Positions 6,488 to 64,000 of a stretch of DNA of 64,000 bases are shown here, one piece after another. Location of the stretch: contig CP060758.1 of the NCBI GenBank assembly GCA_023205875.1, positions 744,001 through 808,000 of the forward strand, in the 5' to 3' direction. This stretch comes from Chloropicon primus (Eukaryota). The notes beneath the pieces are model-generated. The model had not been told where the DNA came from. It ran no database searches and saw only the letters and a list, made by a program, of their open reading frames with translations. Numbering within the stretch: position 1 is the stretch's first letter; each line of letters starts with the position of its first letter. The translations under genes and the position numbers were made by a program.

Positions 6488-8713
6488 ATGGAAGACCTGG
6501 AGGACGTCTTGCCCGCGGGGGAGGCGGAGATGGTCGCGAGGGGGATGAGCCAGGGCGACGTGCTGGTTGCGACTGGCCAGAATAAAGCTCTGAAGAGGTT
6601 GAAGAGAAGGGGGGTTCCTCTTCCTCCTGCTGAAGGGAAGGAGAACGAGGACGTGGGTGGTTCGAAGGAGGAGGAAGCCTTGGCGGTCTCGAAAATGTCT
6701 TTGGACGGCGCCGAGGAGGGGGGGGAGAAGGAGGTCGAGGACGAGGAGCCAGCGGAGGAGAAGGGGGCGAGCGTCAAGCCTGGCGTATCGGGGGGGGGCG
6801 ACATGGTGGACCTGATGGCCGACTGGGAGGAGGGCCTCGCCGACCTCGAGGACGAGGAGGAGCCGGAGGAGCTGGTCGAGTTCTTGCGGCTGGAAAGGGG
6901 AGTGGAGGACTCCAAGGCAGCGTCCCTGTCCGGCAGCGGTGAGCAGGCCAAAAGCGAGGGAAGGGGGGGTGAGGAAGCCCAGTCGGACGTTTCGAGCCCC
7001 TCCGGTGAGGAGGCCAAGGACGACGGTCCCGAGGAGGACGACGACGCAGAGATCGCTTTCGATACGGAGCACGATGCCAACGCCCAGAGGGACATGATTG
7101 CCGACGCCGAGAGGGAAAGGATCGGCAAGGGGTTCAACCCGGACATCAAGCCCATGTCGTCTATTCTGGAAAAGATCAACCTGAGAGTGCAGCAGGCCGC
7201 GATGGCCAAGCCCGCGGCCGCGGAGCCGACCGAGGAAGCGGAGGAGGGGCTCAAGTTCAGCGATTTTGCGGACAAGATTATGAACATCAAGCCCACGGAC
7301 AGCACCGGCGACGTGATCAACGTCGAGGAGCCAGCGAAAGAGGAGGACGAGGAGGAGGAGGGCGGCAAGGGGACCGATGAGGGGCCCGAGGCATCGGCGG
7401 GCGCTGAGGAGGACGAGGCGGAAGACGCTGAGGAGATGGAGAGCGAGGACGCGGACCAGGGGGGGGAGGAGAAGAAGAGGAAGACCAACGAAATTCGCTT
7501 GGCAGCGAAAGAACCAGAACCAGAACCTGAACCTGAGCCCGAGGAGGACGAGCTCCAGTCCGAAGAGGAGGAGGAGGAGGAGGAGGAGTCCGAGACCGAG
7601 GAGTCCGAGACCGAGGTGGAAGAGGAGGAGGAGCAGGCGAACGGGTTCACCTGGGAGGAGGACGAGCCCCTGCCGGATGAGCTGGAAGCTGAGCTGGAGG
7701 GGGAAAAGGCCAAGGAGAAGGCAGCTGGAGGCGAAGGCGAAGGCACGGCGTTGAAGAAGAAGCTGCCCAAGGTCAACAGAGGGTTCGTGGAGGACGAGGC
7801 CGAGCTCAGTGACGACGAGGGCCACCTCCACGAGGACGAGAATGGGGAGGAAATGGATGACGAGGACGATGATGGGAAAGACTTGGAGGACCTGATCGAC
7901 AACAGGAAGATTCGCGAGAGCGATGACAGGGTAAGGAAGCGGACGAAGCTCCACCAGAACTGGATCAACGAGAAGGAGGACGAGGACCTGGAGGAGTTAG
8001 TTCACGCCGTTGAGACTGGGTTCCGGAAGAAGAGGAAGGGGCTCGCCGGCGAGGAGGACGAGGGAAACGACAGGGATGCCAGAAGGAGGAGAGCCGACCT
8101 TGCTGATTTGGGAGGCGACGATCAGGATCTCGAGAGGATCTTCGATGCAAAGATGATTGAAGAGAACGACATGTCGGATGGAGAGGTGGAGATGATCGAG
8201 GCGGCGTACAAGCGCAGGAACCAGAGGCTTGCGGAAAAGAAGCAAAGGGAGAAGGAGAAGGAAAAGGCGTCCGAGTCGGTTCAGAACAACCTCATATCTC
8301 ACGAGGCCCTCGCGTCCATTATTCCAAGGGATGCAGCCGTGGAGATGCCTGCGGCGGCAGACGTGAAGGCGAAGAGAATGTTCATCCCTCGGGACGCTGC
8401 CGTGGGAAGGGTAGAGGAGGAGGAAGAATCTGCGGTCGTATCGAAAACCTCTTTCCTGAGCAGTACCCTTCAGTACAGTAAACGGACGTTGGTTTCGAGT
8501 CGCAAATCTTTCGTGTTCGGCCAGAAGAAGACTGAAGTTGCTGGGGAGGGAAAGAGCGTTGCCACGGAGAAAACCCAGATGCCCAAGAAGGTGGACAGTC
8601 TCCTAAGGTCCAGCTCGCTCGTGAAGCTTCTGAACACCAAGTCGAAGAAGAATCAAGGGAGCGCTCTTGGGACTCAAACTGCCCTTGACTTGTCGAGGAT
8701 CATCAACATGTGA
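6488..8713 (+). CDS. Claspin/Mrc1-like acidic replication-checkpoint protein
   Basis: Very acidic disordered protein with MRC1-like motif RGFVEDEAELSDDE...DLEDLIDN...LHQNW...GFRKKR. Confidence 0.65.
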   Translation: MEDLEDVLPAGEAEMVARGMSQGDVLVATGQNKALKRLKRRGVPLPPAEGKENEDVGGSKEEEALAVSKMSLDGAEEGGEKEVEDEEPAEEKGASVKPGVSGGGDMVDLMADWEEGLADLEDEEEPEELVEFLRLERGVEDSKAASLSGSGEQAKSEGRGGEEAQSDVSSPSGEEAKDDGPEEDDDAEIAFDTEHDANAQRDMIADAERERIGKGFNPDIKPMSSILEKINLRVQQAAMAKPAAAEPTEEAEEGLKFSDFADKIMNIKPTDSTGDVINVEEPAKEEDEEEEGGKGTDEGPEASAGAEEDEAEDAEEMESEDADQGGEEKKRKTNEIRLAAKEPEPEPEPEPEEDELQSEEEEEEEEESETEESETEVEEEEEQANGFTWEEDEPLPDELEAELEGEKAKEKAAGGEGEGTALKKKLPKVNRGFVEDEAELSDDEGHLHEDENGEEMDDEDDDGKDLEDLIDNRKIRESDDRVRKRTKLHQNWINEKEDEDLEELVHAVETGFRKKRKGLAGEEDEGNDRDARRRRADLADLGGDDQDLERIFDAKMIEENDMSDGEVEMIEAAYKRRNQRLAEKKQREKEKEKASESVQNNLISHEALASIIPRDAAVEMPAAADVKAKRMFIPRDAAVGRVEEEEESAVVSKTSFLSSTLQYSKRTLVSSRKSFVFGQKKTEVAGEGKSVATEKTQMPKKVDSLLRSSSLVKLLNTKSKKNQGSALGTQTALDLSRIINM

Positions 8714-24918: not shown

Positions 24919-25233
24919 GGTGCCTCACTCCCCTCCTCACGAGCTCGCAAGCCCGCGCCCCTCCCTCCTCTCTTCTCTTCTCTCTCTCCGCGACCACCGG
25001 CGCCTCCTTCTCCCGCCTTCAGTGATCGATCGATCGAGGAGAGGATGGTGTCGGGGAGGGGGAGCGCAGGGAGGGGAGGGAGGGAGTAGGGGAGGAAGGG
25101 GTGAGCGGAAGGACCTGTCCGTCCTCTCTCTCTTGTTCGTTTCTTGCTCTTTCGAAAGAGTCCTCGCTTGAGAGAGACAACGGAGTGGTGGGGGAGTTGA
25201 GGAAGGAGAGAGGGAGAGAGGGAGAGAGGGAGG

Positions 25234-48658: not shown

Positions 48659-49030
48659 CAATCGCCCCTCGGACCGTTGGAGGAAGGAGAAATGAAATTT
48701 CCAGATAAGGCTGGGCTTTGAGACTCTTGGGCGTGAGGAGGGAGGTCTGGTTCTGGTCCGATGGAAGGGAGAATGGCGGGGCTGGCTTTCGTCGATGTGT
48801 GTGTGTGTGGTGGATGAGGCGCAAGGTCTGAGTCTTCCACGGTTTGCCACGCCAATCGTCCCTCGGACCGTTGGAGGAAGGAGAAATGAAATTTCCAGAT
48901 AAGGCTGGGCTTTGAGCTTGGGCATGAGGAGGAGGGAGGTCCGGTCCGATACATGGGATGGGGGGGAGGGAGGGTGGTTTCGTCGATGTGTGGTGCTGGG
49001 TGAGGCACAAGGCTCGAGTCTTTCCCGTGG
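48659..49030. repeat. Tandem ~194-bp duplicated non-coding element with 57-bp identical core
   Basis: CCCTCGGACC...GGCTTTGAG is identical at 48666-48722 and 48860-48916. Further shared blocks GGTCCGAT, TTTCGTCGATGTGTG, TGAGGCxCAAGG, GAGTCTT. Confidence 0.85.
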
Positions 49031-49219
49031 GAAAAATGGTGTTCCGAATTTCTGAATGAGACGAGTTTTAGAGAGAGAGAGAGAGAGAGAGAGATCAGTC
49101 CCGGTCTTGCAAGGTATGAAAAAGGACGAAGCTGGCAATACAACCACCACGAGTAAGTTCCCCCCTTCCCTCCCTCCCTCCCTCCCTCCCTCCGTGGCCA
49201 TTGCTCTCGCCACATCCTC

Positions 49220-59536: not shown

Positions 59537-59653
59537 GATCTCTGGGTGCGCGTCTTCCGGTTCGAGACAAGGGCATGACAGCGTCACACGGTACAACATG
59601 GTACACATAATATATACTAATAAGCTACATTATTCAGCGGGTTGGACAGTCTG

Positions 59654-60760
59654 TCAACAGCTTTGGCCCGGTGATCTGCCGCTCAGCAGGTAGAGCGTCT
59701 TTCTCGTTTCGGGCACCGGAATGCACCGAATTCCACGGATCGCACACCTCTTCCCTTGGTACATCAACCTCTGCATCCTTTCGATGGACCTCAACCTCGG
59801 CCTTTTCCTGCTGCTCGGAGCCATGGAGTGAACCAACTCGAGAAGGAGGTCTTGCACCAGCTCGACGGGGTGACGCCTCAGGGCCTCCACGTTCACATAC
59901 AAGTCTCCCGCCGCTGCTGCCTCGGCGTCCGCCGGCCTCACAGCATCCCGACGCATCGAGCTCAGCCGCTCCGAGTGCAGGGGGCACACGGAATTAGCAA
60001 GCAGGGAGTGCACGGTGGCAACGTTCCTGCAAAGGCCGTCGTCTTCTCTGGCCTCGAGGGCGGTCCCAAAGTGGTCCCTTATCGCGTTTCTCGTGTACCC
60101 CAGGTTCACGTTCGAAGGATCCTCGACGTATTCGAGGCCATTGTCCGCGCAATACCCGAGAACCTCGCCCTTGGTCACCCCAAGGAGAGGCCGAACAAGG
60201 TAAACTTCCCCAGAGGAGCCTGGTAATCTACCCTCTCCGGGCTCGAGGGCCTCGACCCTAATCCCGTCCCGGGAGAGGGACAAGGTCGACGCTTCTGGAA
60301 TCCCTCTCAGACCTTGAATGCCGCTCGCCCTCATCGCCCTCATGAGGAACGTCTCGAGCTGGTCGCTCCTCGTGTGCCCCAGCAGGATGGCCTTCGCTCC
60401 AAACTCCAGTCCCACCTCAAGCAGGGTGCGGAGCCTTCCCTCTCTCGCGACTTCCTGCTTGCTCGACTCGAGTGCAACGGACCGCACCACGGGCGACAGG
60501 CCGAGGTCCCTCGCCCTCTCGCTCACAACCAAGGCCTCCTCCCCGCTCCCTCGCCGAAGGTTGTGGTTCACAACGATGCACTGACCACGAAAGCTTCGCC
60601 CTGGGAACCGGGTCTCCAGCCATTTCTGGTACACGTGCGCAAGCGCTGTGCTGTCTGGGCCCCCCGAGAGCGCCACCGCGAAGGCTTTCCCCGCCTGGAC
60701 GCCCCCCAGCCTCCTGGACCACGCATCGAGGGCAGGCCAGGTCCGCTCCGCGAGTCCCAT
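59654..60760 (-). CDS. tilS: tRNA(Ile)-lysidine synthase (organellar); start uncertain
   Basis: PP-loop AVALSGGPDSTAL, VNHNLR, AREGR, LLGHTRSDQLETFLMR, RPLL, EDPSN..YTRNAIR. Confidence 0.85.
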   Translation of the reverse strand: MGLAERTWPALDAWSRRLGGVQAGKAFAVALSGGPDSTALAHVYQKWLETRFPGRSFRGQCIVVNHNLRRGSGEEALVVSERARDLGLSPVVRSVALESSKQEVAREGRLRTLLEVGLEFGAKAILLGHTRSDQLETFLMRAMRASGIQGLRGIPEASTLSLSRDGIRVEALEPGEGRLPGSSGEVYLVRPLLGVTKGEVLGYCADNGLEYVEDPSNVNLGYTRNAIRDHFGTALEAREDDGLCRNVATVHSLLANSVCPLHSERLSSMRRDAVRPADAEAAAAGDLYVNVEALRRHPVELVQDLLLELVHSMAPSSRKRPRLRSIERMQRLMYQGKRCAIRGIRCIPVPETRKTLYLLSGRSPGQSC

Positions 60761-61167
60761 GGCAGGAGCTCCTTTGGTGCCCTCTATTGCACTCCACCCG
60801 GAACAGGAACAAGTCTCTTCCACACGGACTTCTTGCGCATCTTCCTCAGTCCTCCTCTAAACCAAGCCAGGACCGTCGACGCCACCTCGTCCGGCTCGTT
60901 GCTGTAGTCCTCAACCCCGCTGTCGATCACCCAAGGGATGTTCCCGGCTTGCCGTTGATCGCTCCTGGCGCTGCTGGCCTTCTGAGGAAGAATTGGGGGA
61001 GAGGGAGGGAGAGGAGTTGGTGGGTGTTCACTTTGTCAATTGTAAGGATTGTACTAAATGATAGAAGGATCTCAAGGGGACTTGCTTCCTTGACGAAGAC
61101 CTTGCGCAGGAGGTCTTCCTTCGCTCTTGTCATCCCACTAGCAGTGTTTTCTGAATCATTCGGTTTC

Positions 61168-61815
61168 CTAGCTCGGGAGCTGGAGTTTCTTGCTCTGCTT
61201 CCAGGCCTGGACGTAGTAGTAGAAGAAGTCCAGGTAGAGCCCTGTCTGAATCAAGCCCGAGATCCAAACGAGCCACGCCGAGTAGCCTGGCTCCGTCGCG
61301 AATCGGTAAACCCAGTTTAAAATATAGAAAGCCCTGTACAACCCAAGCAGGAAAACGTAGTTTCCCGTCAGGTTGTCCACGTTCTTCGTCCTCTGCAGGA
61401 GCACGAGCTGAGGCAGGATCGCCACGGCCTCGAGGTAAATGGAGAACGTCCACAAGATCTCGAAGAGGTTGTACCTCGCGTTGATGAGCAGGGAAAGCAC
61501 GGCGCACGGAGCGACAAGGAACAGGTACCTGAAAGTGTCGTGGTCCCTGTCGTACGTCAGCTTCACATTCCGGTGGCGCCGCATGTACCACACGATCATG
61601 CTAGTCGTTCCTATGTACACCACCTTGAACACCGAGTTGTACAAGGAGTGGAAGTTCCAGAACAGGTCCAGATACCGCGTGATGAAGACTGCCAGGTAAA
61701 GCTCTTGCGTCTTGAGGGATATGCCCGCACAAGACTTGGTCGCATGGATCTTCAGCAGCAGCACGAGGATCGAAAGGAGGTGGAGGATATCCCCCGCGAA
61801 TCTAAACAAGTTCAT
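61168..61815 (-). CDS. ERD2: ER lumen protein-retaining (KDEL/HDEL) receptor
   Basis: MNLFRFAGD, SCAGISLKTQELY, WTFSIYLEAVAILPQL, LGLYRAFYILNW, DFFYYY...KLQLP. Confidence 0.96.
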   Translation of the reverse strand: MNLFRFAGDILHLLSILVLLLKIHATKSCAGISLKTQELYLAVFITRYLDLFWNFHSLYNSVFKVVYIGTTSMIVWYMRRHRNVKLTYDRDHDTFRYLFLVAPCAVLSLLINARYNLFEILWTFSIYLEAVAILPQLVLLQRTKNVDNLTGNYVFLLGLYRAFYILNWVYRFATEPGYSAWLVWISGLIQTGLYLDFFYYYVQAWKQSKKLQLPS

Positions 61816-62218
61816 GACGACGCTTGTCCTTTGTGTCAAGGACACGGAAATAAAAACCCTCTCTCCCAAGCCCTTGTCACGCGACTCGGCGCAGCGAGGT
61901 CAAACCCACACCACGACGCAGAACCCCCTCCAAAGACAGTCAACACACTCAAGACACGCAGAGGCAGACAGAGGCACACGGAGCACGCGCGCGCGTGTGT
62001 TGGTGTGCGTGTGTCCAACCGCAAGACCAGACCTCCCACCGAGGAGATCTGCCCGTCCTTGCGTTGATAAATTAACCCCAAACGAAGCGTGAGACGAAGC
62101 CTTCGCTTCTCACTTGACCTCACAAAATCAAGTTGAACCCTAATGCACCACCTTTTCGGCCTCACACTTCCCTTGGCTCCTCAACACGGAACGCAAACAA
62201 GAGAACAAGTAAAGACAA

Positions 62219-62335: not shown

Positions 62336-62672
62336 TCCTGCTGCTGGTGGTGTTCTCGGGATTACTGTCGAGGGGCACCGTGTTCTTCCGAGACTACTGA
62401 AGGAAGGGTTTGTCCTCCTCCTCCTGCTGCTGCTGGTGCTGCTGGTGGTGTTCTCGGGATTGCTGTCGAGGGGCACCGTGTTCTTCCGAGACTACTGAAG
62501 GAAGGGTTTGTCCTCCTCCTCCTGCTGCTGGTGGTGCTGCTGGTGGTGTTCTCGGGATTGCTGTCGAGGAGCACCGTGTTCTTCCGAGACTACTGAAGGA
62601 AGGGTTTGTCCTCCTCCTCCTCCTACTGCTGGTGGTGGTGGTGGTGGTGTTCTCGGGATTGCTGTCGAGGGG
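62336..62672. repeat. ~98-bp minisatellite, ~3.4 copies, between divergent ERD2 and selenoprotein genes
   Basis: GTTCTCGGGATT recurs at 62352, 62450, 62548 and 62649 (periods 98, 98, 101). Units are nearly identical apart from a CCT/GCT/GGT triplet tract. Confidence 0.92.
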
Positions 62673-62706
62673 ATTTCCCGGGAAGAGGAGGGACTTTGTT
62701 GGAGTT

Positions 62707-63492
62707 ATGATGGCTTCCGCGACGCGGGGGTGTCCTCGGATGATGGCCGTGGGGAGGGCGGGGAGGATTGGGAGGAGAGGGATGGGGGCCCGCAGCGACG
62801 TCGCGAGGGGGCCTCGCCCTCGCCTCCCTCCGTCTGCCTCGTCGTCGTCGTCCCCGGGGAGGAGGGGCCTCGCCTGCTTCGCGGGCGCGAGGGGTTCTAC
62901 GAGCGCGGAAGCCAAGTCCAAGCTCTTCCTTGCCCTCGAGCCCTGCGACGTGTACCGCACGACGGGCGAGAAGGTGAAGCTGACAAGTCTGTGGACCCCG
63001 GACGAGCGAGTGATGGTGGCCTTCGGGAGGCACTTCGGATGACCTTTGTGCTGGGAGCTTGCGGTGCAGCTCAGGAGAGACGTTAAGCCTCGCTTGGACG
63101 AATCCGGCATCAAGCTCCTGATGGTCTCCATCGGATCCGCGGCGTCGGCGTCGGAGTTCGCGAAGGGGACCGAGTTTCCTGCCGAGAACTTGTTCGCAGA
63201 CGAAACGAACAACTGTTATGACGCCCTCTCTTTCTACTCTGGGCTGATGCGAACGTTTTTTGACAAGTCCTCCTTGAAGTCCATGCAGAAGAGGTTCTCC
63301 TCCGATGGCGCCGAGGACTTGAAGGGCGTCATGAAGGACTACAAGATGCTTCCGCCCAAGCAGAACACCCAAACGCTCATCCAGGGAGGGGTGATCTGCT
63401 TTGATGGAACCAGCGACGTCTTCTTTCATAGGGACGAGGGCACTGGGGCGCATGCCGACTTTGACAAGGCGATCGCAGCCCTCGGAGCCTGA
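62707..63492 (+). CDS. SELU: SelU/AhpC-TSA (peroxiredoxin-like 2) selenoprotein with in-frame UGA = Sec at 63040-63042
   Basis: ORFs 62410-63042 and 63046-63492 share one frame. The read-through product has VKLTSLW...VAFGRHFG-U-PLCWE...KLLMVSIG...LFAD...YDAL...QGGVICF. SECIS-like hairpin in the 3' UTR. Confidence 0.88.
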
Positions 63493-63539
63493 GGCCCGGG
63501 TCGGGTCGTCCTCCTCGCCCGTGATGGGTTCCCCTTTCA

Positions 63540-63590
63540 TCTCATGATGCTGCTGGCTGAAACGAGTTTGCCAGCGGTTGAAACCGCATG
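63540..63590 (+). promoter_or_regulatory. Eukaryotic SECIS element
   Basis: ATGA(T) 63544-63548; stem GCTGCTGGC 63549-63557 pairs with GCCAGCGGT 63570-63578; apical AAA 63560-63562; closing TGAA 63579-63582. Confidence 0.8.
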
Positions 63591-64000
63591 TTTTGTGAAG
63601 CAAGGAGAATTATGGCTATCAAGACTGTGGATGAAGTGCACCCCTTTCGACGAGGCTTGGACGACAACCAACCCAAAGCAAAACTTTTGATTTATATATA
63701 TGTACACACACACACACACACACACACAATTGCGCATCTCGGGGTCCCCTCGTCCCCTCGTCCCCTCGTCCCTCCAGACCTTCCTTCTCCCTCTCGAAAC
63801 CCCGAAAGGAAGATCTGGATAAGGAACAGAGCTCTTTGTCTCTCTGCTGATCTGTGGCCTCCATCGGAAGCGTCTTCCAGCCACTGAGGCGGGTTGGCGC
63901 GCGAGGGGCAGCCGCGTTGGACGACGCCGGACCACCTCCCTCCGTTCTCTTTGAAGTATGCGAACAAGCTTGCTCAGTGGGCGAGGGGCACGACGACGAC

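Follow-up and report, generated by a model that had tools for sequence, protein, structure and literature searches.

A hairpin at positions 63544-63582 of the 64,000-nt stretch of Chloropicon primus DNA analyzed here (the window) is very probably a genuine type I eukaryotic SECIS element, and the gene to which it belongs is likely of the SELENOU selenoprotein type. The first-pass annotation had read the site as a SECIS, and this reading is supported in that the hairpin obeys the published rules for such elements and is located, in sense orientation, behind a gene having TGA at a redox site where cysteine is conserved. Taken alone, the predicted hairpin is suggestive of a SECIS. The reading becomes strong because the hairpin, its position and the independent evidence from the Sec/Cys site combine. 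In the mechanism that we favor, the hairpin would direct selenocysteine (Sec) insertion at the in-frame TGA (63040-63042) of a gene encoding an AAED1/PRXL2-like protein.

Sequence, predicted fold and chance expectation of the hairpin

The whole type I element, as delimited by the Rfam match and the fold, occupies 63536-63599 on the + strand and consists of a stem, an internal loop, a kink-turn core, a second stem and a loop carrying AAA. Upon re-reading of the sequence, the letters originally assigned to it were found in place at 63544-63582 (+ strand): ATGAT (63544-63548), the helix II 5' arm GCTGCTGGC (63549-63557), the apical segment TGAAACGAGTTT between the arms (63558-63569), the helix II 3' arm GCCAGCGGT (63570-63578) and TGAA (63579-63582). 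By sequence and consensus ATGAT is an unpaired A followed by the UGAU of the non-Watson-Crick quartet, whereas TGAA gives the 3' core UGAA (KGAW) and with it the tandem sheared G·A pairs. The eukaryotic SECIS core consensus is UGAN/KGAW (PMC3753652, excerpt), and the core found here has this form, with tandem GA/AG and an A in front, where either A or G is allowed. The nine-pair helix II claimed at the outset, with its two G-U pairs (G63549·U63578 and U63551·G63576), formed at pair probabilities of 0.78-1.0. A U·U and a G·U pair may lengthen the helix to 63559 (G63559·U63568 has a probability of 0.32). When the core UGAU, the nine pairs, the U·U and the G·U are counted together, 15 positions precede the AAA, which is the usual spacing of 14-15 bp between core and AAA (PMC2761289, excerpt), and the helix is not "slightly short" in this sense, as had been thought. 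The AAA (63560-63562) was unpaired in every fold and aligned to the AAA of the Rfam model. It sits in a plain loop that lacks a third helix (type I), and the apical loop is of 8-12 nt, its size being set by which of the top pairs form.

The spacing rule of SECISearch allows 10-13 nt between NTGA and AA and 15-39 nt between AA and GA (PMC2375036, excerpt); the hairpin has 12 and 18 nt, respectively. SECISearch further limits the energies to at most -3.7 kcal/mol for the upper stem-loop and at most -12.6 kcal/mol for the whole, and with ViennaRNA in place of the original program we obtained -15.2 kcal/mol and -20.2 kcal/mol, respectively, the latter being the minimum-energy fold of 63530-63600 and not the kink-turn fold. 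The AUGA begins 51 nt past the stop TGA (63490-63492), in keeping with the distance of about 50 nt given in the first-pass annotation, and 501 nt past the in-frame TGA.

Helix I had been called weak and proved so. The predicted 5' arm (63536-63540, + strand) pairs with 63595-63599 (5 bp) in the minimum-energy fold, whereas the Rfam alignment has a shorter pairing with 63586-63590; both registers are weak, and which of them applies is uncertain. The minimum-energy fold also engages part of the core, CAUG (63543-63546), in pairs with 63587-63590, which may be a competing structure. Fold z-scores were -2.0 for 51 nt (9 of 200 shuffles equal) and -2.1 for 71 nt (7 of 200), and longer pieces folded like their shuffles, with z-scores of -0.8 at 91 nt (44 of 200) and -0.1 at 148 nt (87 of 200). 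The main role of helix I is to close the internal loop, and it contributes little to SECIS strength (PMC2761289, excerpt), and therefore its weakness here is not fatal to the SECIS reading.

The bare letter pattern ATGA..AA..GA is common, with 71 matches in the 64-kb window versus 44.5 expected. Two descriptors that we applied were both designed after the element had been seen, and their counts should be read with that in mind. The strict descriptor, which includes the helix, matched only the 63544 site on both strands of the window, where shuffled windows (n = 100) gave an expectation of 0.02-0.16 per window. Upon shuffling of the 200 nt behind the stop, 7, 8 and 9 pairs were reached under the strict descriptor by 13, 3 and 0 of 20000 sequences. 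The looser descriptor, based on published spacings, found three sites in the window versus 4.4 expected from 30 shuffled windows. The 63544 site was the most stable of the three, a stability expected 0.23 times per shuffled window. When the 200 nt after the stop were shuffled 5000 times, 78 shuffles gave any loose match and three matched the stability of the site. The loose SECIS-like folds at 6590 and 26252 were rejected, as they lie within open reading frames of 741 and 1263 residues.

The covariance-model search suggested in the first-pass annotation gave a divided answer. Rfam RF00031 (SECIS_1) aligned over its full length (model positions 1-64) at 63534-63590 and was the top of four Rfam matches within the 211 nt around the site, but its score of 19.2 bits is below the gathering threshold of 35 bits, and the site was absent from the 16 matches of a whole-window Rfam scan at E <= 10. 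The E value of the SECIS_1 match is 0.22 over 4227 families, which by arithmetic is about 5e-5 if one family is considered. Lineage-specific algal SECIS elements can score lower on consensus models (PMC3753652, excerpt). Rfam matches near the site to snoZ278, PVT1_6, Atu_C10 and CC2171 were rejected, all being far under their own thresholds.

Several other features of the window were recorded. An intronless gene for a KDEL (ER lumen protein-retaining) receptor (61168-61815, - strand; PF00810), in a region covered by X2 record 8 (61034-62217), is divergent from the selenoprotein gene. Its 3' region (61087-61133, - strand) holds the ATGA..AA..GA letters and an 8-bp hairpin; as a SECIS this site was rejected, as no helix rises from the core and it fails both descriptors. 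A 98-bp tandem repeat of 3.4 copies with 95% matches (62339-62672) adjoins the selenoprotein gene upstream of its ATG, and other X1-X4 contigs have matches to short pieces within it (62410-62450). An open reading frame having an SGGPDS motif (59630-60856, - strand) presumably encodes a protein like tRNA(Ile)-lysidine synthase (TilS). A pair of nearly identical segments spaced by about 194 nt (48692-48739 and 48886-48933) lies beside a long hairpin-like stretch with weak matches to miRNA families (49056-49194), and another such stretch is at 24952-25233. No tRNA gene was found in the 64-kb window.

The in-frame TGA and the protein family

The coding sequence occupies 62710-63492 on the + strand (a further in-frame ATG is at 62707) and specifies 260 residues when TGA is read as Sec. 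It contains a single internal TGA, the frame being intact on either side. This predicted Sec codon opens a UxxC motif (63040-63051, + strand) in the context RHFG-U-PLC. The protein matched AhpC-TSA_2 (PF13911) with an E value of 5e-16 (59.5 bits versus a cut-off of 27), and it matched the PRXL2B structure 9us9 (prostamide/prostaglandin F synthase) with an E value of 1e-7 and the CxxC of that protein in register with the UxxC. Hence both an AhpC-TSA_2 domain and a (U/C)xxC motif, the marks of the SELENOU/PRXL2 (AAED1) family, are present. The nearest named relatives are land-plant proteins called "thioredoxin-like protein AAED1, chloroplastic" (36-40% identity). In a tree of 26 rows made from hand-picked matches, the protein grouped with a C. 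primus paralog, QDZ19913.1 (support 95/92), and the C. primus pair formed a clade apart from plant AAED1, yet inside a common group. Judged by sequence, the AAED1/PRXL2-like protein is likely a SELENOU-type selenoprotein, a subfamily label set against plant AAED1 and PRXL2B. The first 66 residues (62710-62907, + strand) include a single acidic residue, 13 Arg, 10 Ser and 11 Ala, a composition by which this N-terminal extension would resemble a plastid transit peptide.

The public C. primus protein QDZ21410.1 is identical to the 260-residue protein except that it lacks exactly 32 residues around the TGA. These residues are encoded by a supposed intron of 96 nt (62974-63069, + strand), which has GT..AG ends, preserves the frame when removed and holds both the TGA and the active-site motif. 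Were this gene model right, splicing would remove the TGA, no Sec would be inserted and the hairpin would be a chance look-alike, loose SECIS-like folds being expected about four times per window. We consider this very improbable. X1 record 4, an identical contig, spans 62658-63400 with no gap across the supposed intron (X1 is RNA by guess only, and RNA libraries may hold DNA), and X3 record 19, from an RNA library and a relative, covers 62911-63134 unspliced. The 3' end of the stretch is crossed by five other contigs (X5 records 7-8 and X6 records 11-13), and among the X1, X3, X5 and X6 contigs no joint was listed at either end. Moreover, the stretch encodes the RHFGCxxC motif, which in its Cys form is conserved as far as land plants, and its GC3 of 0.78 is coding-like (0.85 and 0.79 in the flanks, 0.58 past the stop). 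The public models of the paralog QDZ19913.1 (P0194) and of a Tetrabaena protein also skip this redox motif, each at different boundaries, which is what a gene-finder habit around UGA would give. We conclude that 62974-63069 is very likely not an intron, and these findings suggest that the public model wrongly excises the active site of the enzyme. As its gene model skips the motif, the paralog is likely a second selenoprotein of the family, and correction of the two public C. primus models that lack the redox motif is supported.

At the codon itself the contigs speak to differing degrees. X3 record 19 had 34 differences over 62911-63134, including 63039, 63045 and 63046, and none was listed at 63040-63042; the counted changes of A and G were all displayed, one T>G was not, and T63040 is not fully covered. 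Listed differences lie at least 31 letters from the contig end in at least one run. The contigs that match the paralog (X1 record 6 and X2 record 12) align to window positions 63033-63102 and have the TGA only 8-10 letters into the alignment, below that range, and the X5 and X6 contigs that start at 63015 are likewise uninformative on 63040-63042.

The homolog survey took the best 150 of 599 representative homologs (50%-identity clusters). The site was covered in 79 of these and was Cys in 62, Asp in eight, Trp in three, a gap in three, and Ser, Gly and Ile in one each; 49 other models start past the site and 22 match elsewhere. The commonest start (10 of the 150 models) was the residue right after the site, and thus many lineages bear the mark of a stop codon there. 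The 13 closest matches (P0002-P0014) have no residue at the Sec site, in an alignment of 24 of the 29 matches. The eight homologs having Asp (e.g., P0293 and P0304) show it in place of the first Cys. The Trp of P0281, P0299 and P0310 may come from gene callers that translated TGA under a different code.

These data bear on a second alternative, that the TGA is a nonsense change in a dying gene or specifies Cys or Trp by some other route, the hairpin being a relic or having no role. The Rfam score below threshold, the Cys of one catalogue protein (P0193) and the Trp found in 3 of the 79 homologs are in its favor. However, the frame is intact on both sides of the TGA, gene models break at the same residue over many 50%-identity clusters and the hairpin is kept in a relative (see below). 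Moreover, the catalogue proteins that read through the site carry G, G, R and C, residues whose codons can be reached from TGA by one base change. We infer that these residues are miscalled reads selected by the protein-level assembly method, although the Cys could be real. This alternative is as improbable as splicing, and Sec-based recoding at 63040-63042 is likely from the sequences compared.

A metagenome scan of 147 candidate stretches yielded three loci, all coding for distant Cys forms (33-36% identity). The 179, 600 and 600 nt behind these genes contained no SECIS-like fold and no Rfam SECIS match, and the three loci thus serve as negative controls. Within the coding regions of two of them, sR23 was matched at 27.1 bits versus a threshold of 45 (L001 881-933 and L002 448-500, both - strand), probably by chance.

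Transcript contigs, the terminal stop and the hairpin in a relative

The first-pass annotation required that the hairpin lie within the 3' UTR, and three contigs that unite it with the coding region bear this out, the true 3' end being invisible to contigs. X1 record 7 is identical to the window over 63382-63637, and X5 record 7 and X6 record 11 run from 63015 to 63621 through the hairpin and show 37 and 36 differences over about 606 nt, X5 record 7 extending a further 133 letters. X5 and X6 are metatranscriptomes of one study, and the relative that they represent is about 94% identical. TGTAA is the chlorophyte poly(A) signal; it was absent from the + strand past 63000 in the window.

Within the element, the changes listed for the relative are T63540C, T63567C, loss of 63568 and T63578C; none was listed in the core or the AAA. 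T63578C converts the G·U at the base of helix II to G-C. With T63567C and the deletion of 63568, a C would come to face G63559. In the 5-bp helix I, T63540C would replace U·G63595 by C-G, but it would break the U-A63588 pair of the Rfam register. Hence each of the three substitutions could replace a predicted G·U by G-C, which is consistent with conservation, if thinly: the comparison consists of one relative from one study and of one-sided changes among the listed differences, and G63595 is too near the aligned end for any change there to be listed. A further 44 difference rows beyond those listed are probably low-share coding positions. Of the 18 transitions that could occur in helix II, 11 would by our own count leave the pairing intact.

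The terminal stop (63490-63492, + strand), TGA in C. primus, is TAA in X5 record 7 and X6 record 11 (63491 G>A). Contigs of two more distant relatives (X3 record 3, X6 record 12 and X5 record 10) have an in-frame TAG at this position within their loose ends; they continue 103-123 nt past the last aligned base, and the 3' region is unalignable at 80%. As the relatives carry TAA or TAG there, the terminal TGA is an ordinary stop. It is least probable of all that the working SECIS of this selenoprotein gene lies further downstream, or that the hairpin recodes the terminal UGA as well, so that a form extended at the C-terminus and having a second Sec is made: the window holds just 508 nt behind the stop, the stop UGA is 51 nt from the AUGA (the low end of the 51-111 nt given below) and the frame is open for 65 codons past the stop, but neither descriptor found a second candidate in 63493-64000, relatives have TAA or TAG in place of the UGA, and the extension is non-coding in composition (score -0.09, GC3 0.58).

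Proposed mechanism and comparison with known selenoproteins

In the reading that we prefer, a SECIS serving the TGA at 63040-63042, the AUGA/GA core would fold as a kink-turn and bind SBP2, as in other eukaryotes, and SBP2 would recruit eEFSec, with its Sec-tRNA, to the UGA that lies 501 nt upstream. The tandem G·A kink-turn, SBP2 binding and eEFSec recruitment are described in PMC6627142, PMC2761289 and PMC3753652 (excerpts). The minimum UGA-SECIS distance for human DIO1 is 51-111 nt (PMC3753652, excerpt), and the Sec codon of the C. primus gene is well beyond this. The terminal UGA, 41-51 nt from the element, would be at or under the minimum working distance and would terminate translation. 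The product would be a thioredoxin-fold thiol/selenol oxidoreductase having a UxxC site, and may, with less assurance, enter the plastid.

Among algal selenoproteins SELENOU is one of the most widespread, and more than half of 36 algal genomes encode it with Sec (PMC7539508, excerpt). SelU was found in both Ostreococcus species (PMC2375036, excerpt) and in Picochlorum (PMC11092101, excerpt), and the vertebrate SelU1-3 proteins are covered in PMC3316567 (excerpt). In the literature searched, which covered few subscription papers, we found no Chloropicon selenoprotein, and the available portions of PMC7678280 and PMC6627142 do not mention the genus. The locus seems to be unreported there, the kind of element being well known. 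SelU1-3 correspond to the PRXL2A-C genes. The Arabidopsis AAED1 protein is presumably At2g37240. Plastid proteomes include At2g37240, whose function is unclear (PMC10400147 and PMC8195503, excerpts). In the text available to our search, no paper held both "selenoprotein" and "transit peptide" for a plastid-targeted algal selenoprotein.

We tentatively raise the possibility that the C. primus gene may represent a class of plastid-targeted selenoenzyme, the Sec counterpart of the land-plant chloroplast AAED1, which would be made in the cytosol and imported and would have two Chloropicon paralogs hidden by false introns. Chloropicon may also differ from Ostreococcus, with its GUGA type II elements, in using compact SECIS elements of type I with AUGA. 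A plastid-targeted AAED1 selenoenzyme class was missing from the selenoproteome papers searched, as far as their available portions go. If the N-terminus is indeed a transit peptide, the algal and plant proteins would offer a straightforward comparison of Sec with Cys in a chloroplast redox protein of unclear function in plants. More broadly, the locus is a lead to the selenoproteome, as yet undescribed, of an open-ocean picoalga, and the hairpin, which the Rfam model scores below threshold, could seed a Chloropicon-specific SECIS model.

Among known elements, the hairpin is most readily compared with the eukaryotic type I SECIS (RF00031; human GPX1, DIO1 and SELENON), which has the same AUGA..AAA..GA arrangement and UGAN/KGAW core. 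It shares with the human type I elements the 12 nt from ATGA to AA, the AAA in a plain loop and a sense-strand location downstream of the stop, but differs in its short apical loop, nine unbroken standard pairs, weak helix I and lopsided internal loop. Ostreococcus is, like Chloropicon, a marine pico-sized green alga, and SelU is among its selenoproteins (PMC2375036, excerpt). However, in nearly all Ostreococcus SECIS elements a G precedes the core and the mini-stem is long (type II), whereas the Chloropicon hairpin has A before the core and no mini-stem, a form that is rare in Ostreococcus (PMC2375036, excerpt). The protein resembles SELENOU/PRXL2 (FAM213, AAED1) in its PF13911 domain, in the alignment of UxxC with CxxC and in its Sec/Cys pattern, land plants having the Cys form, but departs from that family at large in being closest, among named proteins, to plant AAED1 and in having an N-terminus like a transit peptide.
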